The translations under genes and the position numbers were made by a program. From a virus (lineage: Duplodnaviria; Heunggongvirae; Uroviricota; Caudoviricetes), in the IMG/VR virus record IMGVR_UViG_3300032323_004296: a stretch of DNA of 64,000 bases. The stretch is one strand, 5' to 3'. Below, piece after piece: positions 9,595 to 60,444 of this stretch (positions within the stretch are counted from its first letter, which is position 1; every line of letters begins with the position of its first letter). The notes beneath the pieces are model-generated. The model saw nothing but the letters and a program-made list of their open reading frames with translations. It had not been told where the DNA came from and did no database searches.

Positions 9595-9613
9595 TATTCA
9601 CAAAAAACAACAT

Positions 9614-10126: not shown

Positions 10127-10146
10127 GCGGAATGAGAAAAAGGGCG

Positions 10147-10154
10147 TATCTTTG
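10147..10154 (+). promoter_or_regulatory. -7 promoter element TATCTTTG (second copy of the 20-mer)
   Basis: Same 20-mer as at 9587, upstream of the ATG at 10175. Confidence 0.55.
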
Positions 10155-10174
10155 TATTCACAAATCACCACTAT

Positions 10175-18937: not shown

Positions 18938-19276
18938 ATGAGAATTATCATCACTGAAGGTCAATCTGATTCATTGATTTATAATATTTTGGCAGATACC
19001 TTTACAGGTTACGAATTGAAGTTCGAAGGTGATGGTAGAAATATCTACGTAGACGGTCAAGTGATGATGACAATTTATCCTAACAGAGTCGTAATCGACA
19101 AAAGTATTATCGACCATATCACAAACACATTTTTCTTTGATGACATCAGAGACTTGAAAAAAATAATCAGAGAATGGGTTGTAGAAAACTTTGGAGTTAA
19201 AAGGGCAAGTCAAACGTTTTTTGGTGTTCAATTCAAAGACCTTTCGGGAAATTCAACTCAAAGATTGGAGAAATAG
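18938..19276 (+). CDS. hypothetical protein (leader MRIIITEGQSDSLIYNIL, family B-like)
   Basis: N-terminus resembles the B leader, including an ITE tripeptide. Confidence 0.45.
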   Translation: MRIIITEGQSDSLIYNILADTFTGYELKFEGDGRNIYVDGQVMMTIYPNRVVIDKSIIDHITNTFFFDDIRDLKKIIREWVVENFGVKRASQTFFGVQFKDLSGNSTQRLEK

Positions 19277-19280: not shown

Positions 19281-19667
19281 TTAATAAATTGAACGATTAC
19301 CAGGTTCACGAGTAATACCTACTTCATCTATTTCAACATTCAAGTTTTCACTAACCCAATCTGCAATAATATCAATTATTTTACTTTCTCTTACATTAAG
19401 ACTTATTCTTAGGTTGTCGACCAAATTGGAGTCAATGTAAAGACTACCCATACCATTATGTGGATTTCCATCGTCGTCTTCACCAGGGCCGTACCAAAAA
19501 TAACTCATTGGATGTTCTCCATCGTCAGTGTAGATTTCAACTCTCCATACACTACCATCTTCAACATGAGGGTTTTTGTAATTCCTAAAATCTTCTTTTG
19601 AGAAAATTTCCGTAAGGTATCTGTAAACCAAGGAATGAAATTGAGATGGACTTATAATATATCGCAT
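19281..19667 (-). CDS. leader family B protein (MRYIISPSQFHSLVYRYL)
   Basis: N-terminal motif shared with the MKYIITEEQY family. Confidence 0.5.
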   Translation of the reverse strand: MRYIISPSQFHSLVYRYLTEIFSKEDFRNYKNPHVEDGSVWRVEIYTDDGEHPMSYFWYGPGEDDDGNPHNGMGSLYIDSNLVDNLRISLNVRESKIIDIIADWVSENLNVEIDEVGITREPGNRSIY

Positions 19668-19718: not shown

Positions 19719-20195
19719 ATGAACTTACAAGAAAACATACATAGGATTAGAGAGATGATGGGTATAAGTGAGTCAACCATCCCAAACTCAATTAAAAGGA
19801 GAGCTAATGAGCTGACATTGAAAGAATACATAACCAAAGGAGAATTACAATATCCAACTCTATGTGATGATTTTGAGGATGAATATGAATATGCTGATGC
19901 AGTAATTGATTATGGTCTTGACGAATTTTTATATGAAGTGAACGATGACATCTTCGATGAAGATTATTACAGTGATGTTATGGATTATTTAAGAAACACG
20001 TGCAGAGATTTGTTTGGCCAGTATTTGATTGATATATACAAAACAACTTGTTCTGAATATATGTCAGATTCAGATATGAAAGAAGAACAGAACGAATCAG
20101 AAATTACTGAGAGATGTTGGAAAGGATATACTCAGAAAGGAATGAAAACAATGTTCGGTAAAAGATACCCAAATTGTGTTAAAAAGAAAAAGTAA
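19719..20195 (+). CDS. leader family C protein (MNLQENIHRIREMMGI); body paralogous to 37856..38197
   Basis: Start set at the internal ATG at 19719, which is preceded by TATCTTTATA. Its body ...IPNSIKRRANELTLKEYI...YADAVIDYGLDEF...MDYLRNTCRDLFGQ aligns with 37856..38197. Confidence 0.6.
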   Translation: MNLQENIHRIREMMGISESTIPNSIKRRANELTLKEYITKGELQYPTLCDDFEDEYEYADAVIDYGLDEFLYEVNDDIFDEDYYSDVMDYLRNTCRDLFGQYLIDIYKTTCSEYMSDSDMKEEQNESEITERCWKGYTQKGMKTMFGKRYPNCVKKKK

Positions 20196-20196: not shown

Positions 20197-21159
20197 ATGA
20201 ACTTACAAGAGAACATACAAAGGATAAAAGAGATGATGGGTATAATTTCTGAAACCACAAAAATGGTTAACAAGATTGAATGGGTCAAACCTGAGTTCCA
20301 AACGGAAGAAAACGAATTTATGAATCATTTTCTTAATTGGTTACAAGACGACGTTCTTCAAGTAAACTTTGAGCATTTTTCAAATAAACAATTAGACAAA
20401 CTTATTGATGATATTCACAGCGCTTATGAAAGGGCTGACGTAAAATCATTAACTGATGAAGAATGGTCAAAGATGGAAAATACAGATAGTTGGACAATAG
20501 AAACATATAAAGATTTGTTCGATATTATACATGGGCAATGGGGTAGGAGTGAGGAAAGGATAATTAAACATTCAATAGAGCCGCTCAAAAATGGTGGAAT
20601 AGTTGAAACACCTATAGTTGCATACGCAGACAACCATCCACCCTATTTAGTTGCGGGAAACACAAGATTGTCCGTTTGTAAACTTTTAGGTATAACTCCA
20701 AAAGTTACCAAAGTTAAAATCAAAATTAATATCAAGGAAGAAAAAAAATCAGGAGAGGAGTGGGTCAAGTGTGTTAATTGCAAAAAGAAGTTTACACAAA
20801 CAATTCATAAAGGAAAAAAGTCTTTACCAATCTGTCCTCATTGTGGTACAAACAATGATTTAGTTAAAGAATCGGTAATTCCTGTTTATCTTAAAAGAAG
20901 ATTGTTCGAGATGTTACCAAATTTCATAAGAAATACCTATGAATGGTTGGCACCATGGTCATTTAATAGTTATGACGAATACATGGAAAGAATTATTTTC
21001 AATGTTGTAAGAGAAATTTCTCTTTCTGCTGGAGAGGAAAACTATGAAGAAATAATGAAAATGAGGGAGAAACTTGCTCCATATATAACCAAATACATCG
21101 AAGATAATTTCTCAGAGGAAATAGAAGAATATTACAACGACAACTCGACACCTGGATAA
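20197..21159 (+). CDS. leader family C protein with ParB/Srx-like motif and C-terminal zinc ribbon
   Basis: Leader MNLQENIQRIKEMMGI. HPPYLVAGNTRLSVCKLLGI resembles the ParB N-terminal / sulfiredoxin fold. Zinc ribbon CVNCKKKF...CPHCG. Confidence 0.55.
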   Translation: MNLQENIQRIKEMMGIISETTKMVNKIEWVKPEFQTEENEFMNHFLNWLQDDVLQVNFEHFSNKQLDKLIDDIHSAYERADVKSLTDEEWSKMENTDSWTIETYKDLFDIIHGQWGRSEERIIKHSIEPLKNGGIVETPIVAYADNHPPYLVAGNTRLSVCKLLGITPKVTKVKIKINIKEEKKSGEEWVKCVNCKKKFTQTIHKGKKSLPICPHCGTNNDLVKESVIPVYLKRRLFEMLPNFIRNTYEWLAPWSFNSYDEYMERIIFNVVREISLSAGEENYEEIMKMREKLAPYITKYIEDNFSEEIEEYYNDNSTPG

Positions 21160-22148: not shown

Positions 22149-22862
22149 ATGAAAGAGGGTAATCATTCGAAACTTAAAAAAACAATCGAACAACTACAAA
22201 AATATAAAAAAGTTTTGTTACTTACGTGTTCAAACAGAGGTGCGGAAGTAATAAAAACTCAAACACCCAAGTCAAGTATTCTAGCAAGAGTAATAAATAA
22301 AAATGTAGATAATTCTACCTTGATAGATGTGACCAAACTAAAAATTTATCCTTGTGAAGGTAATGTTTCGAGAATGGAGGGAAATGTCTGTGGAATTAAA
22401 GAAGCTTTATTGGAAGACGAAGAAAAAAATCCTAGTGGTTACCATAGGTGTTGGGCATCTATAAATAATCCTGACGACGAACTTTGGCAAATAAGTAAAG
22501 AACTTTTTGAATCAGACTGTGTAATTTTCTTTGCATCGGTTAGATGGGGTTCTGCAAATATGTTTTATCAAAAATTAATCGAAAGGTTAAATTGGATAAA
22601 TAATAGATATATACCTTACGGAGAATCCAATATAATCAAAGATATTACTTCGGGATTCATAATTGTAGGTCAACACCAATATGCTGACCATATTTGTAAA
22701 CAACAATATAATAACCATACCGATTATGGTTTCAAATCTGACAAAAACCTTTATTGGTATTGGAATGCTGAAGATATCGAATACGATGAAGAAACATTAC
22801 AAGGTTACATCGAAAGTTATCCTGAGTTTTTCGAAGAGTTCAAAATCAGAGTAGTAGAATAA
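22149..22862 (+). CDS. conserved hypothetical (flavodoxin-like fold?) protein, paralog of 58230..58997
   Basis: Extended identity blocks with 58230..58997: LLL(T/A)CSNR..., IYPCEGNVSR(M/A)EGN(V/S)CG, NPSGYHRCWAS, DELW(Q/K)I(S/T)KELF, VRWG(S/Q)ANMFYQKLIERL(N/T)WI. Confidence 0.6.
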   Translation: MKEGNHSKLKKTIEQLQKYKKVLLLTCSNRGAEVIKTQTPKSSILARVINKNVDNSTLIDVTKLKIYPCEGNVSRMEGNVCGIKEALLEDEEKNPSGYHRCWASINNPDDELWQISKELFESDCVIFFASVRWGSANMFYQKLIERLNWINNRYIPYGESNIIKDITSGFIIVGQHQYADHICKQQYNNHTDYGFKSDKNLYWYWNAEDIEYDEETLQGYIESYPEFFEEFKIRVVE

Positions 22863-24230: not shown

Positions 24231-24608
24231 CTATAGGTCATCTTCATCATCTTCAAACTCATAATCTTCATCATCTTCGGACTCATCATCCTCATCTTCC
24301 AAATCATGTGGAAACATAGAAATTATGTAATCACCATAATTCTCCTCGATGAATTCCTTCAATTCTTCTTCGTCCAATCCCTCTTGTCCACCTGTCTCCA
24401 TAAAAAGCCTATCTACCACGATATTAATGACAATGTTCAAGAATTCAATTATGTTTGTGAATTCACCACCTCCATCTTTATGTATTTCCGAAATTTCGTC
24501 TTGGATGATTTTCTCGATTGAATTAATTCTTCTTCTAAGAAATGGAGAACTTAAGTCTAACTCTTCTTTAATTAAATTATATTGTCGTTCAGTTACAATG
24601 TATTTCAT
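24231..24608 (-). CDS. leader family B protein with poly-acidic C-terminal tail
   Basis: N-terminus MKYIVTERQYNLIKEEL. The C-terminal 30 aa are almost all D/E with aromatic residues (DLEDEDDESEDDEDYEFEDDEDDL). Confidence 0.55.
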   Translation of the reverse strand: MKYIVTERQYNLIKEELDLSSPFLRRRINSIEKIIQDEISEIHKDGGGEFTNIIEFLNIVINIVVDRLFMETGGQEGLDEEELKEFIEENYGDYIISMFPHDLEDEDDESEDDEDYEFEDDEDDL

Positions 24609-24641: not shown

Positions 24642-25091
24642 ATGATGAATTTACAGGAAAATATACAAAGAATTAAGGGTATGATGGGAATTACAGAAGA
24701 GTCATACGTTAATACCGAGGATGGAACATATGTCACCACCGAAGATGGGGTTCGAGAATTAGAATATATTTTGAATAAAAGAATGCCGAAGATATTCCCA
24801 TGGTGGAAAAAAATTGATTTAGAATACATAGGTCATCATGTTCGATATCCTAATATGAGACTTAAAGGAACGTTGTTTGTAGATAGAGATTGGGCAATCA
24901 ATAGGTTTGAATCACATAATACTTATAGTAAATTTGACGATGATAAAAATCTTTATTTAGGACATTTTTTGGTAACAGATGAGGTAAATGAGATTGAGGA
25001 ATATGTCAAAGAAAATTACTCAATCATTGCTGGGAAAAACCCTATGAGTGTTAAAATGTTCAGGAAAGATATCAAAGTTGTTGCGGTATAA
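24642..25091 (+). CDS. leader family C protein (MMNLQENIQRIKGMMGI)
   Basis: N-terminal motif. Confidence 0.55.
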   Translation: MMNLQENIQRIKGMMGITEESYVNTEDGTYVTTEDGVRELEYILNKRMPKIFPWWKKIDLEYIGHHVRYPNMRLKGTLFVDRDWAINRFESHNTYSKFDDDKNLYLGHFLVTDEVNEIEEYVKENYSIIAGKNPMSVKMFRKDIKVVAV

Positions 25092-26696: not shown

Positions 26697-26996
26697 TTAT
26701 TTAGTTTCAGTACTATGAAACTCCACATCATCGAATCGCTGATAGTGCTCAGGTCCGAGTGCATTAAAACAAGTCTCAGTTAATTCAGCCACTTCTTTAA
26801 AATCTTCCGTAATAGTAATATCTCCATCTTCGTCAGGGGTAACATAATAAATGACTATAAATTTTTCAACACCAATCTTTTTTAACCTTCCCATGACGGG
26901 TCTAAAAGTATCTGCCTTTATTTCGAAATCCTGTATAAAAGGGTACTTACCAATTATCAATTTCCTTATCAACTTATCTAACAAAACTTTCATCAT
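26697..26996 (-). CDS. hypothetical protein, tandem paralog 1
   Basis: MMKVLLDKLIRKLIIGKYPFIQDFEIK...ELTETCFNALGPEHYQR is about 65% identical to 27019..27354. Confidence 0.55.
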   Translation of the reverse strand: MMKVLLDKLIRKLIIGKYPFIQDFEIKADTFRPVMGRLKKIGVEKFIVIYYVTPDEDGDITITEDFKEVAELTETCFNALGPEHYQRFDDVEFHSTETK

Positions 26997-27018: not shown

Positions 27019-27354
27019 TTAATCCTCATAACCATAAAACTCAACATCTTTAACTCGCTGATAATCCGCAGGTCCTAACGCATTAAAACAAGTCTCAGTC
27101 AATTCTGTTATCTCTTTAAACTCATCATCATAAGGGTACTCTCCATTTTCATCAGGGGTTACATTATAAATAATGGTATATCTCTCAACATCAATCTTTC
27201 TAAACTTTCCTATTTTGGGTTTAAAAGTGTCTAATTTTATTTCAAAATCCTTAATGAAAGGATACTCACTAATTATTAATTTTCTTATCAAACTATCTAA
27301 CAAAACTTTCATCATACTAATAAGTATTTTAGTTGTCAAGTAATTCTTGACCAC
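27019..27354 (-). CDS. hypothetical protein, tandem paralog 2
   Basis: MMKVLLDSLIRKLIISEYPFIKDFEIK...ELTETCFNALGPADYQR. A flanking 18-bp repeat CTTACTCTATAATCGTAT is found 3' of each copy. Confidence 0.55.
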   Translation of the reverse strand: MVKNYLTTKILISMMKVLLDSLIRKLIISEYPFIKDFEIKLDTFKPKIGKFRKIDVERYTIIYNVTPDENGEYPYDDEFKEITELTETCFNALGPADYQRVKDVEFYGYED

Positions 27355-29614: not shown

Positions 29615-29618
29615 ACTA

Positions 29619-29686
29619 CAAAGATACGCCCTTTTTCTGACATGGCCAAAAGAATTTTATATAGGGGGGAATAACCTACAAAGATA
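29619..29686 (-). promoter_or_regulatory. tandem -7 promoter elements (reverse complement of CGTATCTTTGTAG, two copies) for 29207..29614
   Basis: CTACAAAGATACG at 29617-29629 and 29677-29689 is the reverse complement of the 9587/10147 promoter 20-mer core. Confidence 0.5.
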
Positions 29687-30541: not shown

Positions 30542-30814
30542 ATGGATTATATAGTTAAAGAATCACAACTAACAAATTTTTTGAAGAGGAGGTTTTCTAT
30601 GGAAGACCTTGAACAAATTGTAAATGATGTTAAGGGGAGTATTGAGCAAGGGGAGAATTGGGATACCTCACTATATGATGGAATTAGACAATTAATCAAA
30701 AGTAAAAAATTTAAAGACATTGATGAGTTTGGAAATGATGAGTCATATTGGAATTCATATCTGAAATATGAAAAGGAGTTGTTGGCTTATGTTGTTTCCA
30801 AATTGAATTTATAA
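30542..30814 (+). CDS. hypothetical protein (leader MDYIVKESQLTNFLKRR, family B-like)
   Basis: N-terminus resembles the B family. Confidence 0.45.
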   Translation: MDYIVKESQLTNFLKRRFSMEDLEQIVNDVKGSIEQGENWDTSLYDGIRQLIKSKKFKDIDEFGNDESYWNSYLKYEKELLAYVVSKLNL

Positions 30815-30874
30815 TCCCATATAGTCAAAAAAAATTTTTGGAAAAATTTTGTATTTATGATAAAATAGGGTTAT

Positions 30875-31276
30875 ATGAAAAAGGTTGTAAGATTAACTGA
30901 GTCTGATTTGTCAAAGTTGGTTAAAAGGGTTTTAATTGAACAGGAGAAACAATCATCATTTATGGATAAGTTATCTTCAATAAATTTTGATTTACCAAAT
31001 GCGAAACAGGTTCTCAAGAAAATGGTATTATTTCCTATTGAAATGGTATTGGGAAATCTTCCTCCTGTAATGATGGGGAAGGTTGCATATTTTCTTTTCA
31101 AGAATAAGGATAGTGTTCCTGAGATTTCTGCATGTATTCAACAAACAAGGTTTAGATTTCCAAAATCTTGTGATGGGTCATCAAACTTTCAAAGTGGTCC
31201 ATGTATTAGTTCGTTAAAACAAAATTCATCTCAACTTGGGGATTTATATTCTTGTATAAAGGGAAAGATGAAATAA
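30875..31276 (+). CDS. leader family A protein (MKKVVRLTESDLSKLVKRVLIEQ)
   Basis: Conserved leader with a Cys-containing body. Confidence 0.6.
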   Translation: MKKVVRLTESDLSKLVKRVLIEQEKQSSFMDKLSSINFDLPNAKQVLKKMVLFPIEMVLGNLPPVMMGKVAYFLFKNKDSVPEISACIQQTRFRFPKSCDGSSNFQSGPCISSLKQNSSQLGDLYSCIKGKMK

Positions 31277-31334
31277 ATTAAAATATATCTCCTTCAATTA
31301 TAAGTGGGGGTTTTTATTATAAAGAAGAGACATT

Positions 31335-31682
31335 ATGAAAAAGACTATAAGATTAACTGAATCTGAATTGATTAAATTGGTTAAGAGAGTTGTTAGTGAA
31401 CAATTTAATGATAGATTTGTGGACTATGATTCAACGGATATGGAAAATGATTCAGATAATTGGAAAGATATTGGTGATAAGATGGATATGAGAAATAATG
31501 AAATCACAAAAAATCAACTTAAGGATATTATCATGAATTTTTCTCGAATAGATTGTAGTAATGTTAATGCCTTTGATGGTGAGAACTTGACTAGTGAAAT
31601 TCCTGAACGTGATATAATTTATTGTCAGTACTACAAAGGGAAATCTCGAGCTGATTTAATGAGAAAATATAAGTCTTTATAA
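31335..31682 (+). CDS. leader family A protein (MKKTIRLTESELIKLVKRVVSEQ)
   Basis: Conserved leader. Confidence 0.6.
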   Translation: MKKTIRLTESELIKLVKRVVSEQFNDRFVDYDSTDMENDSDNWKDIGDKMDMRNNEITKNQLKDIIMNFSRIDCSNVNAFDGENLTSEIPERDIIYCQYYKGKSRADLMRKYKSL

Positions 31683-31690
31683 GACAATGA

Positions 31691-31716
31691 CCCCTCCAAT
31701 GAAGAGGGGTTTTTTA
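31691..31716 (+). terminator. rho-independent terminator
   Basis: Hairpin CCCCTCcaatgaaGAGGGG followed by TTTTTT. Confidence 0.65.
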
Positions 31717-31831
31717 TTTCTATAACATGACCCCCCCTTTTATAATTTATCTCCTATTCTCAAAAAAAAATTTTTGGGAAAATTATTATTTTTTGGGTTT
31801 TGTATTTTAGTTTTGGAATTAAACTTATGAT

Positions 31832-32473
31832 ATGTGGAATTCAGATGATATTGTAAATATTTTGGGGAGAAGTGATAACTTGGTTTTATTCGATGTAGGT
31901 GCTGCAGATTTCAGAGATAGTGTTATCATGAGAAATTCTTTTCCTGATTCAACAATATATTCTTTTGAGCCTGACAAAACAAATCTTGAATGGTACGGAA
32001 GTATATCCAAAAATTACAATCTCAACATATTTCCTTTCGGTCTATCGGATGAGAACGGAACATTTAAATTTTATACAAGTGAAACATTGAATGGAGCAAC
32101 GTGGAAATATTCTGGGTCTTTTATGAAACCTGTCGTTAAAGAGGGAACATCTGAAGGACTATTCCATTCAAATTTAATTTATAATATGGAAGGTATAGAA
32201 CTTGAGACCAAAAGATTGGATAGTTTCTGTATGGAAAATGGAATAACACAAATTGATTTCATGCATTTGGATGTACAGGGAGCGGAAACAAAAGTAATTC
32301 ACGGTATGGGTGACCTTAGACCTTATGTAATATTTGCAGAGACATGTGAGTATGAGACTTATGAAACAAATACAAATCTCCAAGAGTTTGATAAACTCAT
32401 GGGGGACCTTGGGTATTCAATCCGACAAAGGTATGAATATGATACTTTGTATGTTCATGAACATGTAATATAA
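31832..32473 (+). CDS. FkbM-family methyltransferase
   Basis: LFDVGAADFRDS...FEPDKTN...IDFMHLDVQGAETKVIHG matches the Methyltransf_21/FkbM domain pattern. Confidence 0.7.
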   Translation: MWNSDDIVNILGRSDNLVLFDVGAADFRDSVIMRNSFPDSTIYSFEPDKTNLEWYGSISKNYNLNIFPFGLSDENGTFKFYTSETLNGATWKYSGSFMKPVVKEGTSEGLFHSNLIYNMEGIELETKRLDSFCMENGITQIDFMHLDVQGAETKVIHGMGDLRPYVIFAETCEYETYETNTNLQEFDKLMGDLGYSIRQRYEYDTLYVHEHVI

Positions 32474-32538
32474 TTGTCAACGGTTTCTAATTCACCGTAA
32501 GTTTTTATCTTCATTTGTATTTATTATAAACAAAAATT

Positions 32539-33132
32539 ATGAAACATTTATTGAATGATTTAACGGAGCAAGAAAAGAATTCTATCCGTGAACAACATAC
32601 AGAGAAAATTAGAATTGATACATCAAAGTTTTCCAAATTGGTTAATACAAAGTCGGGTGATGCAAAACCATTTATTAATGAACAATCCGATGTCTGGTCG
32701 AAATATCCATGTGTCAAAAAAATGAAAGATGGTCTTAGTCCTAATGGTCAGAAATTTAAAACTGATGGGAAGATGCAATATTATTCTAATGGTAGAGCTA
32801 TGGACCCTGTGACAAAGAAAAAGTATAATTATGAATGTGGTGATGGAGATGAAATTCTTACAACAATACAAGAACAATCTGAAGGTCAGAGTCATCAATC
32901 ATCTAATTTTTCTTCAGGTCAAGTTGTTAAAGCAAAAAGGGATAAGGATGGTCAGGTTTATACAATTCAGATTGTTAAATCTGAACCGAAGTTTATTTTG
33001 GGGACAATTACGGGACCAGGTACATATCAGGGTCAGTCATTGAAAAATGGCACACAGGTTGAATTATATTCTTATTCTCCTGGTAAATTATCCGGCAATA
33101 TGGATTTGGGCAATTTTACAGTTGTAAAATAA
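32539..33132 (+). CDS. hypothetical protein
   Basis: 197-aa ORF followed by a terminator at 33155-33181. Confidence 0.55.
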   Translation: MKHLLNDLTEQEKNSIREQHTEKIRIDTSKFSKLVNTKSGDAKPFINEQSDVWSKYPCVKKMKDGLSPNGQKFKTDGKMQYYSNGRAMDPVTKKKYNYECGDGDEILTTIQEQSEGQSHQSSNFSSGQVVKAKRDKDGQVYTIQIVKSEPKFILGTITGPGTYQGQSLKNGTQVELYSYSPGKLSGNMDLGNFTVVK

Positions 33133-33204
33133 TTTCGATATAATGAATTATAAACCCCTTCCTTTATCGGAGGGGTTTTTTGTTTGTGGTTCTATTTATC
33201 TTAT

Positions 33205-33510
33205 ATGAAATATATCATAACGGAAGAACAATATAAAAGAATTGCATACTCTCCTAGTAGGTTATGGATATTGAGGAGATATGATTTGGTTAAAAAATCA
33301 TTTATGGAAACGTTGAAGAATGTTAACCCTTGTACGACAAACTCTTTTGAACAATACGAAAACGAATTTTATCTTACTTTAATGGATGACCTCCATGAGT
33401 TATATTATTTGGTTGATGGTTTTGACTATTTAGGTGTTTTTGAAGAATTGAAGGACCTATTTTATGTTGACCTCACCGAAGAATATTTTGAACGCAAAAG
33501 GGCTTGTTAA
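33205..33510 (+). CDS. leader family B protein (MKYIITEEQYKRI)
   Basis: Start moved to the internal ATG. Confidence 0.55.
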   Translation: MKYIITEEQYKRIAYSPSRLWILRRYDLVKKSFMETLKNVNPCTTNSFEQYENEFYLTLMDDLHELYYLVDGFDYLGVFEELKDLFYVDLTEEYFERKRAC

Positions 33511-33671
33511 TTCTCTGCAGCCGGAAACCGACGACAATCCCCCTACCCCCTTTTTGACCGACGGTCCCCGACCGACTTCGTCGGTTCTTGTTCCTTATAT
33601 AATATCCCCCTTCGTTGAACCCATCTTAAACAATGTGGTCGGATGATATATTTATTTAAAAATAATTTATA

Positions 33672-34172
33672 ATGAAAAAGATAGTTAGACTTACAGAATC
33701 GGAGTTGGTTCGTTTGGTTAATAAAGTTCTTGAAGAACAAAAAGTAACAACAAAGGGTATTTCTTTAACTCCTGATAAGTCAAAAGATAATAAAGGAAAA
33801 TGTAAACCACCATCCTCCCCAGAGGAATTTGAAGACGCAGTTCTTGATAGAGTTGAAACTTGGGATGAGATACACAACGTAATTTATAGTATTAACCCAA
33901 CTCCACTGATTTTATCCAAACTAAAAGGAACAAGATATGGAGGTTTCTCATATGATAAGGCAAGTAATACTATATCATTATATAAATTCACAGGGTATTG
34001 GAGGATGTTTTTTACAGGTGAAAGCTTAGGTGATTTTCTTGTGAAGATAAAGATGCCTATCAATTTATTACCAAAATTACCTAGAGAATACTTTGATGAG
34101 TCAATGTCAATGGTACCCACTTTTGAGATAGAAAGTGGAAAGATAAAATTATTTATGACTGGACTTTGTTAA
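33672..34172 (+). CDS. leader family A protein (MKKIVRLTESELVRLVNKVLEEQ)
   Basis: Leader is nearly identical at DNA level to the copy at 34872. Confidence 0.6.
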   Translation: MKKIVRLTESELVRLVNKVLEEQKVTTKGISLTPDKSKDNKGKCKPPSSPEEFEDAVLDRVETWDEIHNVIYSINPTPLILSKLKGTRYGGFSYDKASNTISLYKFTGYWRMFFTGESLGDFLVKIKMPINLLPKLPREYFDESMSMVPTFEIESGKIKLFMTGLC

Positions 34173-34249
34173 AAATATATCAAAAAAAAATAGATAAGAA
34201 CCTTCACGTATAAGTGAGGGTTTTTTATTTTCTTTTGTATTTATAAGTA

Positions 34250-34789
34250 ATGAAATATCTCATTACAGAAAGACAATATGGTGTATTAATGGAACAACAA
34301 GTTAGAATTCCTATGCCGCTTCAGAATCCGGTTTTCGACAAGGTTATCAAATTAAATAAAAAGGTTTTTGGATTACCTGTTAATCCACAAATTACTCCTG
34401 AATATACAAAAAAAATGAATGATTTATTGAACAAAAAAAATGTTGATACATCACAGAGAACTTTGTTGGGAGCTTTGGTAAACTTCATACCCATATATGA
34501 AACATATTTGGACCTGGAGACACTTATAGATGGAATCACAACGTTAGATAGAGCAAAAATGAATGGTGGATTTATTGCTTTGATTTATCCTTCGTTTTCC
34601 TATAAAGCAATGACAAATTTGTATTCTTGGTTTGTAGAAAAAACGTCGGGTAAGGAACAAGCTGATTATCAGGATAATGCCAGAATTGATTTAGTAAATA
34701 TGACTCAAGTAGATAGAGAAAAATTATTTAAGAAATATGGGTATGGTGGTTATGAAAAGTGGATTAAAGCTGGAAAACCAAAACTGTAA
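34250..34789 (+). CDS. leader family B protein (MKYLITERQYGVLMEQQ)
   Basis: Leader motif. Confidence 0.55.
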   Translation: MKYLITERQYGVLMEQQVRIPMPLQNPVFDKVIKLNKKVFGLPVNPQITPEYTKKMNDLLNKKNVDTSQRTLLGALVNFIPIYETYLDLETLIDGITTLDRAKMNGGFIALIYPSFSYKAMTNLYSWFVEKTSGKEQADYQDNARIDLVNMTQVDREKLFKKYGYGGYEKWIKAGKPKL

Positions 34790-34871
34790 TTTTAAAACTG
34801 TCCGAAACGAGTGAGTCTCATATTTTTCGGCGCAATTGTTATTTTGGGATATTTATTTTAAAAATAATGTT

Positions 34872-35375
34872 ATGAAAAAGATAGTTAGATTATCAGAATC
34901 AGATTTGGTTCGTTTGGTAAATAAAGTTATTAAAGAACAATCTGTATCTCCGATTCCTTCAAAAGGCGCTCAACCAAAATCACCAAATATAGGTACTAAC
35001 ACAAAACAAAACCCGTCACAAATGAGAGGTTCAGTACCGGCACAATCAAGAGCGACGGCTGTGAAGGGTACACCAGCAAAACCTGGTATGTTACCTAATG
35101 TAGATATCTTGAACAGGGACTACAAAGGGAAAAGTTTCAATTGGAATGGTAAGTCTGTACAAATAGATGGTTTTGTTTTGGCAAAAAATCCTCAGACTGG
35201 TGCAATGGAACCTAATTTTCCTGTAGATATGCAAACCTATGTTAATGGAAATGGAATGGATTGGTCATTTGACTGTAAATCTAAAGGTTTTTCAAAGGTG
35301 GGAAACATGCCAAATACGAAATTAACAGGAACAAGAATCGAAACTCAGATTTATCAAAACTATTGTAGAAGATAA
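34872..35375 (+). CDS. leader family A protein (MKKIVRLSESDLVRLVNKVIKEQ)
   Basis: Start moved to the internal ATG. Confidence 0.6.
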   Translation: MKKIVRLSESDLVRLVNKVIKEQSVSPIPSKGAQPKSPNIGTNTKQNPSQMRGSVPAQSRATAVKGTPAKPGMLPNVDILNRDYKGKSFNWNGKSVQIDGFVLAKNPQTGAMEPNFPVDMQTYVNGNGMDWSFDCKSKGFSKVGNMPNTKLTGTRIETQIYQNYCRR

Positions 35376-35491
35376 TTTATCTTTATTAATCTATATGAAC
35401 CCTCTTCAATTATGAAGGGGGTTTATATTATATGGTAACACCCACCTTCGTAAAAACTATCCGTTTGATGTATTTATTATAAAGTAGAATT

Positions 35492-35986
35492 ATGAGTTAT
35501 CAAAAAAAAAATAATATCCGAGAGGTTAATATGAACTTGGAGATAAGATTCTTAAATGAACAAACGGTTGTTCCTCTCATGACCGTTTTGTCAACGCCCA
35601 ATAATGTGGCAGTTAATGCTCAAGACAACACTGACATCATTTTTTTGACTATGAGAGATAAAACAGGAAAAATTGTTCCAAACTCAAAATATTCATATAA
35701 AGTGAGGGGTAAAAAAGGTTTTATTTCCTTCGACCTTACTTTAAGAAAAGTTGAAAGACTCAATAATGGTGATTTAAGTGCAGAGGCTTATCCTAAGAAC
35801 GATATTATGAAAGGACTTTTAAGTTTAATCCCGAGCAAATACAAAACCGCAGATGGTTATGTAAAAATACTCGTTCCTAACGCAAAAATTACTGAGGCGA
35901 TAAAAAAACTACAAGCAAATAAAGGTGTCAATGCAACCGTAGATGCGGGTAATGGAATTGATGTCGTATTCAAATTGATTCAATAA
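35492..35986 (+). CDS. hypothetical protein
   Basis: 164-aa ORF. Confidence 0.5.
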   Translation: MSYQKKNNIREVNMNLEIRFLNEQTVVPLMTVLSTPNNVAVNAQDNTDIIFLTMRDKTGKIVPNSKYSYKVRGKKGFISFDLTLRKVERLNNGDLSAEAYPKNDIMKGLLSLIPSKYKTADGYVKILVPNAKITEAIKKLQANKGVNATVDAGNGIDVVFKLIQ

Positions 35987-35997
35987 TAATTTGATTT

Positions 35998-36570
35998 GTG
36001 AAATATATTATAACAGAAGAACAATATAGTATTTTAAAAGAACAAAATCTTATCAACCGTTATTTGGATAGTAGAGGGGGGATAATTAGGATGTCGAAAT
36101 TAATTGCCGACCAATACTTCAAGTTGATTCATTTTGTTGATGTAACGAAACCCCAAATAGAAGAAATGGGTGAAAAAATATATCCCGCAAATGAAATGGT
36201 ATCCAAAAACCCAAAGTTGAAAGGTACACCTGAATATAGAGAATTAAAAGATAAAGAGGACGCCTATGACCACCAGCTCGCGAGTGCGATTGCATCTTCA
36301 ATCTTCGGACCAGAATTTTCAGAACTATTGGGAAAGGCGAATGAAATAAAAGGTGGGCTTAGAATGTTCTTAAAAGGGTCTCCATCAAAAGGGATTGATA
36401 AATTTGAACAATTTACATCAGGTTGGGAAGAAGACAATGCAAACAATCAAATTGGTATTGAGTTGGGGAAGAAGTATCCGAACAAAAATATACAGTTTTT
36501 TTCAGATTTGGTTGTGAAAAATATAGAAAACAAAAATTACTACGATTCTACGGGAAAAAAGAAAAAGTAA
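35998..36570 (+). CDS. leader family B protein (MKYIITEEQYSILKEQNL)
   Basis: Leader motif. Confidence 0.55.
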   Translation: MKYIITEEQYSILKEQNLINRYLDSRGGIIRMSKLIADQYFKLIHFVDVTKPQIEEMGEKIYPANEMVSKNPKLKGTPEYRELKDKEDAYDHQLASAIASSIFGPEFSELLGKANEIKGGLRMFLKGSPSKGIDKFEQFTSGWEEDNANNQIGIELGKKYPNKNIQFFSDLVVKNIENKNYYDSTGKKKK

Positions 36571-36624
36571 TTCTTTTTTTGGAAAAGTTTTAGAAATGTC
36601 TATCTTTGTAAAAAAGATATAGAC

Positions 36625-36798
36625 ATGAGAAATTATTATGAATATTGGTATAAAAAATTTTTGAAAGATGGTTTAAAGGCCATAAAGATTGTAATTGGTT
36701 TGGGACTCGCTGTTTCTTTGGGTTATTCTGTAAACCTTCCTGTTGGAATTTTGTTTTTTGGTTGGGTATTGATTGAATCTTTAATTGAGAAAAATTAA
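36625..36798 (+). CDS. small membrane protein (57 aa, below ORF-track cutoff)
   Basis: ATG at 36625 with TATCTTTG at 36601-36608. Hydrophobic core VIGLGLAVSLGYSVNLPVGILFFGWVLI. Confidence 0.35.
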   Translation: MRNYYEYWYKKFLKDGLKAIKIVIGLGLAVSLGYSVNLPVGILFFGWVLIESLIEKN

Positions 36799-36803
36799 AA
36801 CAT

Positions 36804-36977
36804 ATGAAAAAGTTTAGTATTAGTGAGTTATTGATATTGATTGTATGTGTCGTTTGTATCTTTGTTAGTGAATATATCTACATTGTACAGGGTAACCCAA
36901 CAAAAGCGATTTTTATTGGTTTGTGGCCTCCAACTATATTGGGTTTGTTGAATTTTGTTAACATAAAAAGAAAATAG
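36804..36977 (+). CDS. small membrane protein (57 aa, below cutoff)
   Basis: MKKFSISELLILIVCVVCIFV... Two hydrophobic segments. Confidence 0.35.
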   Translation: MKKFSISELLILIVCVVCIFVSEYIYIVQGNPTKAIFIGLWPPTILGLLNFVNIKRK

Positions 36978-36979
36978 TA

Positions 36980-37330
36980 ATGCAGAATTTGGATATTATA
37001 GTTTTGACAAGCATTCTGTCAACACTTTTTGTTGTCTTCGGTGTTTTGGTATATAAGGAACTAACAAATCTTGATGAGGATGATTATAAGACTTCTAAAG
37101 CAGGAGGACCAAGAGTTCATTTGTTGAAATTGATGGAAAAGGTGTTTGATAATCGTTCCATTCCCGTTGAAGAAAAGAAAATGATTTATAAAGCTGTGAA
37201 ACGAACTATATCTGATATGGAATCTGATGGAATGTATTTTCCTGATGATGTTAAGGAGAAGTTAAAAGAATATAGGGACGAGTTGTTATGTGAGTATAGT
37301 GGTTTACCTTCTCCAAAATCTTATGAATAA
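36980..37330 (+). CDS. membrane-anchored hypothetical protein
   Basis: N-terminal TM LDIIVLTSILSTLFVVFGVLVY. Confidence 0.5.
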   Translation: MQNLDIIVLTSILSTLFVVFGVLVYKELTNLDEDDYKTSKAGGPRVHLLKLMEKVFDNRSIPVEEKKMIYKAVKRTISDMESDGMYFPDDVKEKLKEYRDELLCEYSGLPSPKSYE

Positions 37331-37336
37331 TATTTT

Positions 37337-37447
37337 ATGACATTATTAGTTGTTCTTTTATGCTCCGTTGTATTGTCTGTCGGGGCTATGTATTTGGGTT
37401 ATAAGTATGTTTTCATCAAAGAGGATGATGAACCATTTTTCTTTTAA
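37337..37447 (+). CDS. small membrane peptide (36 aa)
   Basis: MTLLVVLLCSVVLSVGAMYLGYKYVFIKEDDEPFFF. Confidence 0.3.
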   Translation: MTLLVVLLCSVVLSVGAMYLGYKYVFIKEDDEPFFF

Positions 37448-37466
37448 GATGGGGTATTTATTGTTA

Positions 37467-37841
37467 ATGAAATACATTATATCTGAAGAACAATACCAAA
37501 AGGTGATTTGGCAAGACCAATCTTCCGACACGTCTATCGAAGAAATTCGTGGAATGAAGGAATATATCGAAAGTTTTTTACCAAAAATTTTGAAATATTT
37601 TAAGTCTAAGTATAAGAACGATTTGGTTAAAATTGACGTAGAAACAAAAAATGTACTTTTTGGTTATGAAGATTTTGTCATGGAAATACCATTAATCACC
37701 TTTTATTTTTCCGAGTCCGTAATAAACAGGACTGAAGAAATCTTCAATGATTTAAAAAATATTTTTGATATAAACATGAAAAGTTATGGTGTCCCTTTGA
37801 GTATTAGGATATACGAACAAACATGGAAACGTGTTTATTGA
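37467..37841 (+). CDS. leader family B protein (MKYIISEEQYQKVIWQ)
   Basis: Start moved to the internal ATG. Confidence 0.55.
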   Translation: MKYIISEEQYQKVIWQDQSSDTSIEEIRGMKEYIESFLPKILKYFKSKYKNDLVKIDVETKNVLFGYEDFVMEIPLITFYFSESVINRTEEIFNDLKNIFDINMKSYGVPLSIRIYEQTWKRVY

Positions 37842-37855
37842 TAAAATCAAACACC

Positions 37856-38197
37856 ATGAAATACATTATTTCCGAATCTCAGTACAAAACATTGTTGGAA
37901 CAAAATGTTCCGAATTCAATCAAAAGAAGAGCCAATAAAAAAACATTGGATAAGTATATCTCGTTATCGAAAAGAAATAACCCACCTTATTGTCAGGAAC
38001 ACGAAGATGGGTACGATTATGCTGATGAAGTGATATACTATGCCATTGATTATTTTTTTACTGAAGTTGGTCCTCAAGTAGAATATATAGATGATTATAC
38101 TGATATTATGAATTATCTTAGAAACATGTGTAGAGAATTGTTTGGTGAATCTTTGGTCTATCATTATGAAAATAATTGTATTCCTGATGAAAGTTAA
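37856..38197 (+). CDS. leader family B protein (MKYIISESQYKTLLEQNV); body paralogous to 19719..20195
   Basis: Body VPNSIKRRANKKTLDKYI...YADEVIYYAIDYF...MNYLRNMCRELFGE aligns with the family-C-led 19719..20195. Confidence 0.6.
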   Translation: MKYIISESQYKTLLEQNVPNSIKRRANKKTLDKYISLSKRNNPPYCQEHEDGYDYADEVIYYAIDYFFTEVGPQVEYIDDYTDIMNYLRNMCRELFGESLVYHYENNCIPDES

Positions 38198-43756: not shown

Positions 43757-43798
43757 AAAAAATCCCACAAATTGTGGGATTTTTTGTATCTTTGTATT

Positions 43799-44788: not shown

Positions 44789-45286
44789 ATGGAAAGAAGA
44801 TTTATTTTAACAGAAGAAGAAAAGAAAAATATTAGAAAACAATATTTTTTCGAACAATCTACAGAAAAAACTGAAAAAAGGTTTTGTCACAAGGGTAATA
44901 CTAAGTCTTTAGAAGACATCATGGGTCCTGAAGATGCTGAAGATTATATTGAAGGTGTCAGATTGAGAAATTCAGGTGTTCGTGGATTGACAGATACTCT
45001 CGAATTACTCAAAACAATTCATCTACATCCGAATATTTCGGATGGTGGAATGGATTTAGCTAACAAACTTGTCAGCAATCTTCAAACTTACAAACCTTAC
45101 AACTATTTTGACGAAACTAAGAAAGAATGTAATAGAGCAATGGATAAAATTATTGAACTCTATAAAGAAAACGAACACGGTGAAGAATTAGTTAAAGATA
45201 TTGAAAAAGTATATCAAATAAAAGATGTTTCAGACAGAGCTAAAGAATATATCAAACACGGACTAGCTATCATAAAGGGTGAATAA
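44789..45286 (+). CDS. hypothetical protein
   Basis: 165 aa. Terminator follows at 45278-45310. Confidence 0.5.
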   Translation: MERRFILTEEEKKNIRKQYFFEQSTEKTEKRFCHKGNTKSLEDIMGPEDAEDYIEGVRLRNSGVRGLTDTLELLKTIHLHPNISDGGMDLANKLVSNLQTYKPYNYFDETKKECNRAMDKIIELYKENEHGEELVKDIEKVYQIKDVSDRAKEYIKHGLAIIKGE

Positions 45287-46283: not shown

Positions 46284-47402
46284 ATGAGAAGGATTATAAG
46301 ATTAAATGAAAATGATTTAGAATCAATTATACAAAAAGTTATTTTAGAGCAAGGAAGTATGTTTGGAACTGCGGGGACAAACCTACCTGGATATAGAAGA
46401 GACGACCCAAGAAACACTCAACCAAAAGTTGTTACTCCAAGGGTTGAGGATATTAATCCTAAGAAATTGAAAATGGGTGATGGAGGTAGAAAAAATCCAA
46501 AACAAGAAGAGGATGTAAAAATTTTACAAAGAAAATTAATGAAGTTAGGTCATCTTGTAATTAAAGAACCTACAGGATATTTTGGTTCATTAACTCAAAA
46601 GGCTTTGGACAATTATTACAATTCAGGAAAAACAAGTGGAACTGAAAAAAAGAAAACAACAACCACAACTACGACTAAACCAACAGAAAATGTTAAATAT
46701 TCAAAACAAGTTCAGGACCAATTGAATTATATGAAAAATTCAGGAATATTGAAAAATGAAAAATTTACAATACTTGATGACAAAAATTCAATAGTTTATG
46801 CTTTCTTACCTGAATACAAATTCTACAAATTATATTATGTTATCACAGGGAAAAACAGAGGGGATGCTCTCAAAACTAAAAGTATGACAGATTGGATTTG
46901 GGAAAATTGGCGTCAAGTTGGTTCATATATTTGGAAACAAGTAAAAGGTGTTGGAAAATGGAGTGACATCACCAGTTTACCTGATAGAGTTGCTGATTAC
47001 ATTGATGGTTGTTATTTTAATTCTGGTGATTGGGTAATTAAAAACACACCCTCAGGAGTATTTAAAAGAGCGGGTACTATTTCAAACTATATGAATGATT
47101 TATTATTAACTACGTTTATAAGTGAAGATTATGGGGATAGGTTTATATCTTGGGACACTTGTGAAGGAAAAACCATACCTTTCGGATTTCACGGAACAGG
47201 AAGTGCAGATAGATTGGAGGTTCTAAACAATGCCAATCCTGAGAAAGTTTCTTGCCAAAGGCGTAAAATGTCTTTCGGATGTATAAATTTCAACCAAAAG
47301 GATGTTAATAATATCAATAACTTTATCAGTGCAGGTCAATTGACTATTTGGTTACCTGATAAAACTAATGATATTGTAGAAATTCCACAAAACTGTTTGT
47401 AA
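46284..47402 (+). CDS. leader family A + peptidoglycan-binding domain + L,D-transpeptidase (YkuD)-like catalytic domain
   Basis: Leader MRRIIRLNENDLESIIQKVILEQ. The PG_binding_1-like segment is DVKILQRKLMKLGHLVIKEPTGYFGSLTQKAL. The YkuD signature HGTGS...SFGCINF has the His and Ser-x-Gly-Cys spacing of L,D-transpeptidase. Confidence 0.65.
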   Translation: MRRIIRLNENDLESIIQKVILEQGSMFGTAGTNLPGYRRDDPRNTQPKVVTPRVEDINPKKLKMGDGGRKNPKQEEDVKILQRKLMKLGHLVIKEPTGYFGSLTQKALDNYYNSGKTSGTEKKKTTTTTTTKPTENVKYSKQVQDQLNYMKNSGILKNEKFTILDDKNSIVYAFLPEYKFYKLYYVITGKNRGDALKTKSMTDWIWENWRQVGSYIWKQVKGVGKWSDITSLPDRVADYIDGCYFNSGDWVIKNTPSGVFKRAGTISNYMNDLLLTTFISEDYGDRFISWDTCEGKTIPFGFHGTGSADRLEVLNNANPEKVSCQRRKMSFGCINFNQKDVNNINNFISAGQLTIWLPDKTNDIVEIPQNCL

Positions 47403-48346: not shown

Positions 48347-48679
48347 ATGTATTATGATTTGACAATAAATATTGATATATTTATTTATATGTTATTAACA
48401 GAACAAGAAAAAGAAGAAATAAAGAAAAAATACGAGGACAACATATCAAAAGAGGTCTTGGCTCATTTGAAAAGATATTATCCTATTTATGAATTCAATA
48501 TGAAATTTATGGATTCTCCTGTCAAACAGATTTTAGTGGATGATAAACTATATATGCTTTCTCAAAATAAAAAGTATCTAGTTAATAAGATATCTTCCAT
48601 TATAGAAGAAACATTTACGTCAGTAGAAAAACCCTTTCTCAGAAGAACTGTAAAATTTTATTTAGATATGTTGAAATAA
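48347..48679 (+). CDS. hypothetical protein
   Basis: 110 aa. Confidence 0.45.
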   Translation: MYYDLTINIDIFIYMLLTEQEKEEIKKKYEDNISKEVLAHLKRYYPIYEFNMKFMDSPVKQILVDDKLYMLSQNKKYLVNKISSIIEETFTSVEKPFLRRTVKFYLDMLK

Positions 48680-55785: not shown

Positions 55786-56901
55786 TTATTTTTTTTCTTT
55801 ACCACCTTCTTGTGTGGCATATTTTATACCCATAATTGTTCCTACTATTGAGAATGCGTTTGTCAATAATACACTAAACATGTTACTCCAAGTCGAGCCA
55901 ATAATCTGTGTATCCTTACCAGTAATGATTGCCATCCAATACAATATAGTTGTTACAACACCTACCCCGACAATAACAGCTAGTGCAACTTTTACGATTA
56001 CCTTAATTAACTCAGATTGACTTTTTTTCATTACCACATCCAAATCATTCAACGCAGCGTTCTTCTCTCTTTCAATTGAGTCTTTGAGTTTTTCCGATTC
56101 CTTTAACTGTAGTTGCAAATCTTTTGATAATAAATCAATTTCCTTTTTATTATTTACTGCTTCGGTAACATCAGTGGCAATTTTAATTACACTTGTAACG
56201 TTTCCTTTACTGTCAAAGACAGGATTATAAGTTGCCTGTAGATAGATAGTAGACCCATCTACTTTTTTTCTTTCGAATATCCCATCTAAAAACTTACCAT
56301 TATTTAAGTTCTTCCAAAACTTAGAATACTCATCAGATTTTGAATACTCATAACTAACAAAAATACTATGATGCTTTCCAACAACTTGATTTTTTTCGTT
56401 TGGTTTAAAACCCATTGTTTCTAAGAAAATTTCATTAGCATCCAAAATAAAACCCTTCATGTCAAAAGTAATAGTGGCGGTACTTTTGTTAATTGCATCT
56501 ATTTGTTTTTTACTATCAACAATTGCAGTAATGTCAGTAGCAACTTTCATTATTTTAGTAATCGTACCAGTTTCATCAAAAATAGGGTTGTAGGTTGCTT
56601 GTAAGTTGATAAGATTACCGTCTCTTTTTCTTCTTTCAAATTCCCCTTTATAGTACTTACCACTTCTTAAGATATCCCAAAACTTTTCGTACTCTAACGA
56701 CCTTGCATAATCTTCACATACAAAAATACTATGGTGTTTACCAACAATTTCCGCGTGCTCATCCTCCCCATATCCCATTGCCTTCAAAAAAATAGCATTA
56801 ACACCTAAAATTTTTCCGGTTAGGTCAAAATAAATAAGAGCGTTACTCCTATTTATCGCCTCCATCCTGCTGAGTAACTCTTCCTTTGATAGGTTCTTCA
56901 C
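55786..56901 (-). CDS. tandem PAS-domain protein with C-terminal coiled-coil and TM anchor
   Basis: Two repeats of about 120 aa matching the PAS_3 pattern (GKHHSIFV..Y.....KFW..L..GK...G.FERKK.DG..I.LQATYNP.FD..G....I.K.ATD.T). C-terminal TM IVKVALAVIVGVGVV... Confidence 0.7.
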   Translation of the reverse strand: MKNLSKEELLSRMEAINRSNALIYFDLTGKILGVNAIFLKAMGYGEDEHAEIVGKHHSIFVCEDYARSLEYEKFWDILRSGKYYKGEFERRKRDGNLINLQATYNPIFDETGTITKIMKVATDITAIVDSKKQIDAINKSTATITFDMKGFILDANEIFLETMGFKPNEKNQVVGKHHSIFVSYEYSKSDEYSKFWKNLNNGKFLDGIFERKKVDGSTIYLQATYNPVFDSKGNVTSVIKIATDVTEAVNNKKEIDLLSKDLQLQLKESEKLKDSIEREKNAALNDLDVVMKKSQSELIKVIVKVALAVIVGVGVVTTILYWMAIITGKDTQIIGSTWSNMFSVLLTNAFSIVGTIMGIKYATQEGGKEKK

Positions 56902-57335
56902 GGTTTTGTATATTTTTTATTAATACCGAAAAAGCAACCCAAAAGTTTAGAAAAAACTTTTAGATAGTATCTTGGTTACTATAAATATATAAATTGTTAG
57001 TATCTTTATTAAGAAAATATAAAATTTACTTAAATCGATTATGTAGAATCAACTAAGATTTATTAAACGTAAATTATGTTATGAAATTAATCTTCTTTTA
57101 TTTCTGTAACGATTATATTATTAATTTGGCTTGAGAACCAAGTGTCCAAAATAATCAAAATTAAATGTGTTTGTATTTCTTCTATGGGATGAGGGACTGT
57201 GGCAATCAAATTTATTACCAACCAAGAAATGACCTTTATTCCTAAATAAATTCTTACTAATGTTATTAAAACAGCAAAGATTGTCTGTAATCTCATAATA
57301 CAAAAACTAAAACTATTTATTAGAAAAATCAAGTT

Positions 57336-57962: not shown

Positions 57963-57965
57963 TTT

Positions 57966-58997: not shown

Positions 58998-59056
58998 ACC
59001 AATATAAATATGTTAAGATATAATTATAAACCCCACTTTCAGGTGGGGTTATTTAT

Positions 59057-60438: not shown

Positions 60439-60444
60439 GTACAA

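Follow-up and report, generated by a model that had tools for sequence, protein, structure and literature searches.

Short N-terminal leaders on unrelated proteins of a large uncultured phage are candidate head-targeting propeptides

A 64,000-nucleotide (nt) stretch of viral DNA (Caudoviricetes; IMG/VR record IMGVR_UViG_3300032323_004296), hereafter the window, carries 22-24 genes whose products start with one of three conserved leader peptides, named A, B and C, or with a possible fourth type. All of these leaders are the N-termini of open reading frames (ORFs), with the consensus sequences MKKIVRLTESDLxRLVKRVIxEQ for leader A, MKYIITEEQYxxLxEQ for leader B and MNLQENIQRIKEMMGI for leader C, the possible fourth type following the pattern LTEqEKxxIxxqY at 32539, 44789 and 48389. 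The reading that we favour, and to which we give about an even chance, is that the leaders are portable N-terminal head-targeting propeptides that would be functionally similar to the capsid-targeting sequence (CTS) of phage T4, with many more cargoes and several families. The T4 CTS, found on the internal proteins IPI-III and Alt and removed by gp21, is likewise a short N-terminal peptide carried by unrelated dispensable proteins and ending in (L/I)-x-E. The T4 internal proteins are diverse, their conserved part being this CTS of 10-19 residues alone (PMC3012670, PMC9026906, PMC5694885), and the CTS has been suggested as a general route by which T4-like phages load varied proteins (PMC9026906, PMC3012670).

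For an unbiased test of the leader families, the first 18 residues of 110 window proteins were compared all against all, retaining pairs with a BLOSUM62 score of at least 30. This yielded 35 N-terminal pairs, far above chance: controls gave 0 of 4851 pairs when N-termini were compared with internal segments, and 2 pairs with shuffled N-termini. The resulting clusters recovered leaders B (11 proteins), A (5) and C (3), and a six-frame regular-expression scan found every leader match at an ORF start. The only N-terminal cluster in the window that stems from whole-gene duplication is a pair of tandem paralogues (26697-26996 and 27019-27315, both on the minus strand) starting MMKVLLD.LIRKLII..YPFI.DFEIK. 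An earlier sequence-only reading of this DNA had listed at least 17 leader genes. All the starts that it gave bear the peptides, but for two minus-strand genes it gave the low ends of the ORFs (24231 and 19281) in place of the true starts at 24608 and 19667. One of its weak members, 18410, matches only in MKYII and is doubtful, as is 17036 (-). The larger count given here includes genes absent from that list, namely 62858 (-) (B-like), 4316 (C-like) and the three of the possible fourth type. Close strains also carry an extra leader-A gene immediately upstream of window position 1 (L094:9677-9985, L178:17900-18205). The leader genes, with a leaderless pair as last entry, are the following (aa, amino acids; an arrow marks the candidate cleavage point, and the heptamer TATTTAT is described below):

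30875-31276 (+), leader A, 133 aa, MKKVVRLTESDLSKLVKRVLIEQ, ORFan body; TATTTAT at -23 and a terminator-like hairpin (31291-31310) after the gene
31335-31682 (+), leader A, 115 aa; terminator-like hairpin (31689-31711) after the gene
33672-34172 (+), leader A, 166 aa; helix predicted by AlphaFold2 at residues 9-27; hairpin (34196-34225) after the gene
34872-35375 (+), leader A, 167 aa; body unrelated to that of 33672, leader DNA 88% identical to it
46284-47402 (+), leader A, 372 aa; PG_binding_1 domain (Pfam) at residues 75-108, YkuD not confirmed
33205-33510 (+), leader B, 101 aa, MKYIITEEQYKRI; preceded by a hairpin (33152-33178) and then TATTTAT
34250-34789 (+), leader B, 179 aa, MKYLITERQYGVLME↓Q
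35998-36570 (+), leader B, 190 aa, GTG start, MKYIITEEQYSILKE↓Q
37467-37841 (+), leader B, 124 aa
37856-38197 (+), leader B, 113 aa; body homologous to that of the leader-C gene 19719
24231-24608 (-), leader B, 125 aa; acidic C-terminal tail
19281-19667 (-), leader-B-like, 128 aa, MRYIISPSQF
18938-19276 (+), leader-B-like, 112 aa, MRIIITEGQS
30542-30814 (+), weaker leader-B-like, 90 aa, MDYIVKESQL
62235-62858 (-), weaker leader-B-like, 207 aa, MDFLINESQLNFLVE↓S; hydrophobic body
19719-20195 (+), leader C, 158 aa, MNLQENIHRIREMMGISE↓S; its C-terminal Cys motif matches several PHROGs without assigned function
20197-21159 (+), leader C, 320 aa; weak zinc-ribbon match in the body, under the Pfam cut-off
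24645-25091 (+), leader C, 148 aa; alternative ATG at 24642
4316-5440 (+), C-like leader, 374 aa, MKNTILNEELDKMKFMFG...VISE↓Q; in a region replaced in a 95%-identical strain
32539-33132 (+), possible fourth type, 197 aa, LTEQEKNSIREQH
44789-45286 (+), possible fourth type, 165 aa, ILTEEEKKNIRKQYFFEQ
48389-48679 (+), possible fourth type, MLLTEQEKEEIKKKYE; a homologue of its body adjoins the gp23-like capsid gene in contig L083
16767-17036 (-), doubtful member, 89 aa, start MYYIITEEQEKRL; DCoH-like HHP motif by eye, no family match. Should it prove to be a pterin dehydratase, the B-like start may belong to that fold as its N-terminus
57336-58238 (+), two leaderless genes of 208 and 90 aa, with homologues beside the capsid gene in T4-like head clusters

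The bodies that follow the leaders are unrelated, as had been proposed from the sequence, with a single exception. Among 24 leader proteins, only 37856 and 19719 have homologous bodies (49% identity, E 9e-27), and this pair bears different leaders (B and C, respectively), which directly shows the leaders to be exchangeable modules. On a wider scale, the bodies of 134 distinct leader-A proteins form 102 clusters (84 singletons), in which Pfam domains are rare (PG_binding_1 five times, YkuD once and Tlde1 once); matches to the Pfam family DUF6576 fall on bodies, outside the leader. The L,D-transpeptidase-like and ParB-like bodies suggested earlier found no support in Pfam or in sequence searches of the PDB. 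No model in Pfam or PHROG covers the leaders themselves. A conserved N-terminal head-associated module joined to variable C-terminal effector domains is also a property of the MuF-domain polymorphic toxins of temperate phages. MuF is a large folded domain, unlike the short leaders, and neither MuF nor any other Pfam domain was found on them, most bodies likewise lacking a Pfam domain. Between 30.5 and 38.2 kb, where leader genes form an array, the gene order is unchanged in the retrievable contigs of the strains. In mid-array (36625-37330) lie three leaderless small genes whose products (57, 57 and 116 aa) have hydrophobic segments that look transmembrane. Relative to the 95%-identical strain L094, window positions 3199-3912 and 4399-5244 are replaced or missing, a turnover in gene content that touches the C-like gene 4316; a 459-aa product with a weak match to the methyltransferase family N6_Mtase is found near this region. 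Several leader proteins share at their C-termini a basic motif rich in Cys (CWKGY..G.K..FGK.YPNCV or CSRGKNAAKAKYxVYPSAYANGYAVQVCKG). It was located at 20100-20195 (the C-terminus of 19719) and 57336-57962 in the window, and at L014:5001-5471 and L128:17833-18096, and it matches PHROGs without assigned function and hypothetical proteins of pelagiphages and of a Prochlorococcus phage.

Selection acts on the leaders as peptides. Across 131 distinct copies of leader A, the conserved Leu, Ser, Thr and Arg positions each use 4-6 codons, Ser being encoded by both TCN and AGY triplets, and the use of so many synonymous codons at conserved residues points to constraint at the protein level, in agreement with what had been proposed from the window alone. 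Within the window, the DNA of most leader-A pairs is 58-78% identical, with differences at both synonymous and non-synonymous sites; the leaders of 33672 and 34872, described as nearly identical in DNA, are 88% identical. Over the 131 nt following leader A, identity drops to the random level. These data bear on the possibility that what is conserved is an element of the DNA or RNA, either a recombination cassette or a translation-initiation enhancer. The arrangement of the genes as separate promoter-to-terminator cassettes, the 88% identity of the pair just mentioned and the occurrence of homologous bodies with swapped leaders, which shows that recombination at leader borders takes place, could all be accommodated by such an element. 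Nevertheless, the codon diversity largely refutes it, most copies are too divergent in DNA, the amino-acid conservation holds over phages with differing genome contexts, and the conservation at the nucleotide level expected of recombination or regulatory DNA cassettes (PeSL-like) is not found in the leaders, so that we regard this explanation as scarcely tenable.

The conservation of each leader stops at a hydrophobic-x-E tripeptide. In leader A, I, L or V occupies position -2 in all 131 copies and E follows in 126 of them, with Q next in 83. The terminal tripeptide is present in 7 of 7 copies of leader C and, as E15 or E16, in 29 of 49 copies of leader B. Since conservation ends there, as in T4 MKTYQEFIAE↓, the likelier cleavage site would be the hydrophobic-x-E that closes the leader, namely V-I-x-E22↓Q in leader A, L-x-E15↓Q in leader B and G-(I or L)-x-E, ending at E18-19, in leader C. 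In T4, exchange of the terminal Glu for Asp blocks processing. The earlier proposal had placed cleavage after an (L/I)-x-E near the N-terminus (LTE, ITE and LQE in leaders A, B and C, ending at E9, E7 and E5, respectively). Those tripeptides are indeed conserved, but the T4 rule is better matched at the leader end, and the early ones may be additional cleavage sites. T4 Alt is cut at ITE-6, and several cuts within propeptides are usual in T4 and in giant phages (PMC5694885). The capsid protein of a leader-bearing phage has a sequence of the same form, SYLINE↓AATT, which aligns with T4 gp23 at SFLTE65↓A66, the gp23 position being that in the literature (PMC5694885).

An AlphaFold2 model of the 33672 protein, built from an alignment of 59 sequences, shows residues 1-8 as extended and residues 9-27 as a helix with a predicted local distance difference test (pLDDT) score of 95-97, followed by a low-confidence linker and body. 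The hydrophobic moment of the leader-A helix (0.60-0.69) is that of a strongly amphipathic one, values for leader C and the T4 CTS being 0.41 and 0.45, and that for leader B 0.23 (not amphipathic). Leaders do not resemble Sec, Tat or lipoprotein signal peptides, in which a hydrophobic region of about 8 or more residues follows a basic n-region; they are charged amphipathic helices, with 9 charged residues in 23 in leader A. By reading of the sequence, the lipoprotein signals present in the window at 40143 and 40932 also differ from the leaders.

Searches with T4 head proteins against leader-bearing loci detected head genes of the T4 type, for portal, gp21-like protease, scaffold and gp23-like capsid protein, in other contigs that bear leaders (L067, L014, L083, L128 and L171). 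In L067 the order is a gp20-like portal, a 254-aa ORF, two leader-A genes (137 and 86 aa), a 143-aa ORF and a gp21-like protease that keeps the His and Ser motifs GE(L/A)(N/D)HP and GVSSRG. T4 has its prohead core genes 67 and 68 between genes 20 and 21, and it is this same portal-protease slot that leader-A and leader-B genes occupy. A leader-A gene also lies 1.6 kb from the gp23-like capsid gene and an acidic scaffold-like gene in L014, L017 and L018. Among 80 further loci with a gp21-like protease, 35 contain leader genes, and in 34 loci a leader-B protein of 126-134 aa (MKVIITENQLLRLFE↓AN) is encoded directly upstream of the protease. Beside the capsid gene are found a leader-A protein of 77-88 aa with a poly-Lys tract and a Cys-rich domain, whose basic character calls to mind T4's internal proteins, and a leader-A protein of 505 aa. 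The phages of these contigs share with T4 the portal, protease, scaffold and capsid types, and leader genes, like the T4 genes for CTS-bearing proteins, form variable arrays. The gp21-like proteases (L067:3979-4677, L128:9971-10690) keep ILIE or LLIE near their own N-termini, aligned with LIE-9 of T4 gp21, for which a role in autocleavage or targeting has been suggested (PMC9026906).

Leader genes also share an upstream motif with head genes. TATTTAT is the most enriched heptamer upstream of window genes (8.5-fold). Counted within 45 nt upstream, it precedes 15 of the 22 leader genes in the window versus 18 of the 85 other genes (p = 5e-5), and 90 of 133 leader-A genes over all loci. In the head clusters its frequencies, against 2% in random 45-nt windows, are as follows:

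Protease, 75 of 79 (95%)
Portal, 39 of 44
126-aa leader-B protein, 24 of 34
Capsid protein, 0 of 52
Large terminase, 2 of 29

Because the motif is common to portal, protease and leader genes, the latter probably belong to the head-gene, late-type transcription class. Terminator-like hairpins separate array genes (11 versus 4.2 ± 1.9 in shuffles), and sigma-70-type promoters are not enriched. A second upstream motif, TAtcTTTGTA, is found before a distinct set of genes (for instance at 9580-9612, 10140-10172, 29615-29650 (-), 36590-36622 and 43765-43797) and resembles the Bacteroidota sigma-A -7 box TAnnTTTG. The two motifs suggest that the window has two promoter classes, one host-type and the other phage or late-type.

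Location in head clusters and the promoter-like motif fit equally well with the leader being a virion-docking helix that is kept uncleaved and anchors accessory proteins to the portal, the inner capsid surface or a part of the tail or baseplate. The conservation of leader A over 23 residues in distant phages suggests a conserved binding partner, and a gp6-like baseplate gene adjoins leader genes in L032. Still, without cleavage there is no explanation for conservation that ends at hydrophobic-x-E, the same form as the capsid maturation site, and we consider docking unlikely. The same data weigh on another alternative, in which the leader would be a common helix for interaction or oligomerisation and play no part in the virion, for example binding one hub protein of host or phage, or acting as a localisation signal in the infected cell. 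A single amphipathic helix could bind many things, most bodies are ORFans and nothing ties the bodies to the virion. This is countered by the presence of leader genes between portal and protease and beside the capsid gene, with the promoter-like motif of head genes, which makes such a helix quite improbable.

The most recurrent neighbours of leader-A genes are an ATPase and a peptidase. In about 19 of 79 loci, a 679-aa double-AAA+ Clp-like ATPase without N-domain is encoded no more than 10 kb away from leader-A genes; an M42/M20-like peptidase is found within the same distance in 16 loci, and Hsp70 is recurrent (a 4-member cluster, representative L036). The leader might therefore be a recognition tag for a phage chaperone or unfoldase system (ClpA/C-like AAA+ ATPase, Hsp70 and M42-like aminopeptidase) that would direct timed degradation or folding. 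We find this very improbable: the genes for ATPase, peptidase and Hsp70 are all absent from the window and its readable flanks, the association may be plain synteny in one subclade, and the location of leader genes in head clusters is left unexplained. Moreover, the 642-kb phage LR756502, which has the best GenBank match to the ATPase, has no leaders within 20 kb of the ATPase gene. Loci with the ATPase or the peptidase are L004, L005, L010-L012, L022, L024, L028, L030, L035, L041, L042, L053, L054, L061, L062, L070, L078 and L079 (for instance, L062:5710-7746 and L061:4679-5737). The ATPase has a GVGF loop and may dock ClpP, and its best GenBank matches are huge phages of 635-642 kb.

The favoured reading, a head-targeting propeptide, entails the following sequence of events. 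The leader, a short extended segment plus an amphipathic helix, would dock its cargo late in infection on the scaffolding core of the assembling prohead. A prohead protease of the T4 gp21 type would then cut after the hydrophobic-x-E at the leader end, and perhaps also after the earlier LTE, ITE or LQE. Mature cargo would remain in the head and be delivered with the DNA into the next host. Core binding, cleavage, packaging and ejection of the leader proteins are inferred from the context described above. In this way the phage lineage could have built a large, fast-turning set of packaged proteins, because 16-23 added codons can address any body. The CTS-like packaging put forward in the sequence-only reading is partly supported, by circumstantial evidence: leader genes lie within T4-type head clusters that include a gp21-family protease, have the promoter-like motif of portal and protease genes, and are constrained as peptides.

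Several observations weigh against it. No similarity to the T4 CTS (MKTYQEFIAE) was found, only M-K and the terminal hydrophobic-x-E being in common, in peptides whose shortness precludes a statistical comparison. In leader A, 23 residues are kept between very distant phages, a conservation that exceeds that of T4 CTSs and could mark a retained functional element instead of a disposable propeptide. Thirteen of the 49 leader-B proteins, including 33205 and 37467, lack a hydrophobic-x-E in the 16 residues scanned past the motif. Disorder propensity in the linker that follows leader A barely exceeds that of the bodies (0.64 versus 0.59), and a disordered linker was accordingly discarded as a feature of these proteins. 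The leader-B protein in the gp68 slot was rejected as a homologue of T4 gp68 by profile comparison (hhalign probability 0.1%), its equivalence being one of gene position alone. Searches of GenBank gave no cultured phage with leader proteins. Finally, the 102 kb read (the window plus 28 kb on its upstream side and 10 kb downstream) contained neither the head genes nor the protease of the window's own genome.

More than 281 viral loci of IMG/VR contain leader A, and leaders B and C co-occur with it in the same loci. In 185,579 bacterial and archaeal species genomes it gave 5 matches, all in short contigs of metagenome-assembled genomes, and a search of 5.8 billion proteins with the leader returned hundreds of unnamed metagenomic proteins. 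GenBank phages were compared with the window DNA, the leader consensus, the leader proteins and two head-cluster leader proteins, giving either nothing or matches confined to the Cys-rich C-terminal domain in pelagiphages; matches to the leader alone would fall under the E-value limit, so that absence from cultured phages is unproven. Leader C of 19719 (window 19719-19800) has a weak match over residues 2-27 to phrog_8701 (E 0.044), a family of 69 positions without assigned function, and some GenBank phages may thus carry a C-like leader. Full-text literature searches retrieved no description of the leaders, nor of CTS-like signals in metagenomic phages.

The window itself has about 32% G+C, some 110 genes and three tRNAs, and gives the impression of being an accessory region in a large phage genome. 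PHROG matches include a phage endonuclease VII and a PurM-like gene of cyanophage/pelagiphage type; searches of IMG/VR with the window itself and with an FkbM-like gene gave no match. Its lipoprotein and signal peptides, read by eye, are of what we take to be Bacteroidota type. Flavobacterium phage immuto, which shares the PurM-like gene, was set aside, being unlike T4 and free of leaders over its first 50 kb. L089, a 173,409-bp contig in ENA (ERZ28594331, KRAE22-1_SAMEA4981841 scaffold_31), is 99.99% identical to window 56345-64000, and this overlap implies a genome of at least about 230 kb. Upstream, the sequence was extended with a 95%-identical contig from the Joint Genome Institute (JGI) and two IMG/VR contigs. 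The 28 kb read there contain large tail-fibre-like ORFs, a tail-fibre-type Peptidase_S74 domain, a DnaJ-like protein by eye and methyltransferases, and the 10 kb downstream contain ThyA and a T4-type RNA ligase. Homologues of window genes 57336, 57966 and 59057 are present in T4-like head clusters, and L083 has four genes in common with the window as well as a gp23-like capsid gene. These shared genes link the window genome to that T4-like clade, through which a gp21-type protease can be predicted for it. Two further pairs of paralogues were observed. The first (22149-22862 (+) and 58230-58997 (-), 237 and 255 aa) has the pattern LLL(T/A)CSNR ... KIYPCEGNVSR.EGN.CG ... NPSGYHRCWAS ... VRWG.ANMFYQKLIERL and no Pfam or PHROG match. 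The second (7040-7885 and 8561-9475, both on the minus strand) has long zinc-finger repeats of the CxxCxGxG type, DnaJ-like by eye, with TATTTAT upstream of both genes.

Compared with the T4 CTS, the leaders are longer (16-23 versus 10-19 residues), belong to at least three families within one genome and are conserved over very distant uncultured phages. Their use is also much more extensive, with about 20 genes in 64 kb and, for leader A, at least 102 clusters of bodies that are unrelated. The propeptides of phiKZ and SPN3US ejection proteins are a further parallel: they too come from jumbo phages, and they are cut after Glu in a short motif, at multiple sites, and show conserved N-termini on diverged head proteins, as in the paralogues gp53 and gp54 with identical 15-residue starts (PMC5694885). 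However, those propeptides are mostly longer than 100 residues and occur on paralogues only, whereas the leaders described here are short and lie on non-homologous bodies (PMC5694885). The coexistence of several families admits the idea, which we consider rather unlikely, that they are distinct addresses for multi-channel cargo loading, each family having a different prohead partner or position, or a different release step. If so, a jumbo phage would sort and dose dozens of injected effectors and recruit new ones by leader swapping, and a search for leaders would lead to a very large set of anti-host proteins, so far unexplored, that environmental phages inject.

If the leaders are head-targeting signals, a motif of 16-23 residues would provide a bioinformatic handle on the proteins injected by uncultured T4-like and jumbo phages. 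Leader A alone marks more than 100 unrelated protein families, nearly all without assigned function, and proteins that are injected rank as prime candidates for roles in anti-defence and host takeover. The T4 CTS principle would then be common and split into several leader families instead of being peculiar to T-even phages, and the leaders might serve as new tags for packaging proteins to be delivered by phages of non-model hosts.

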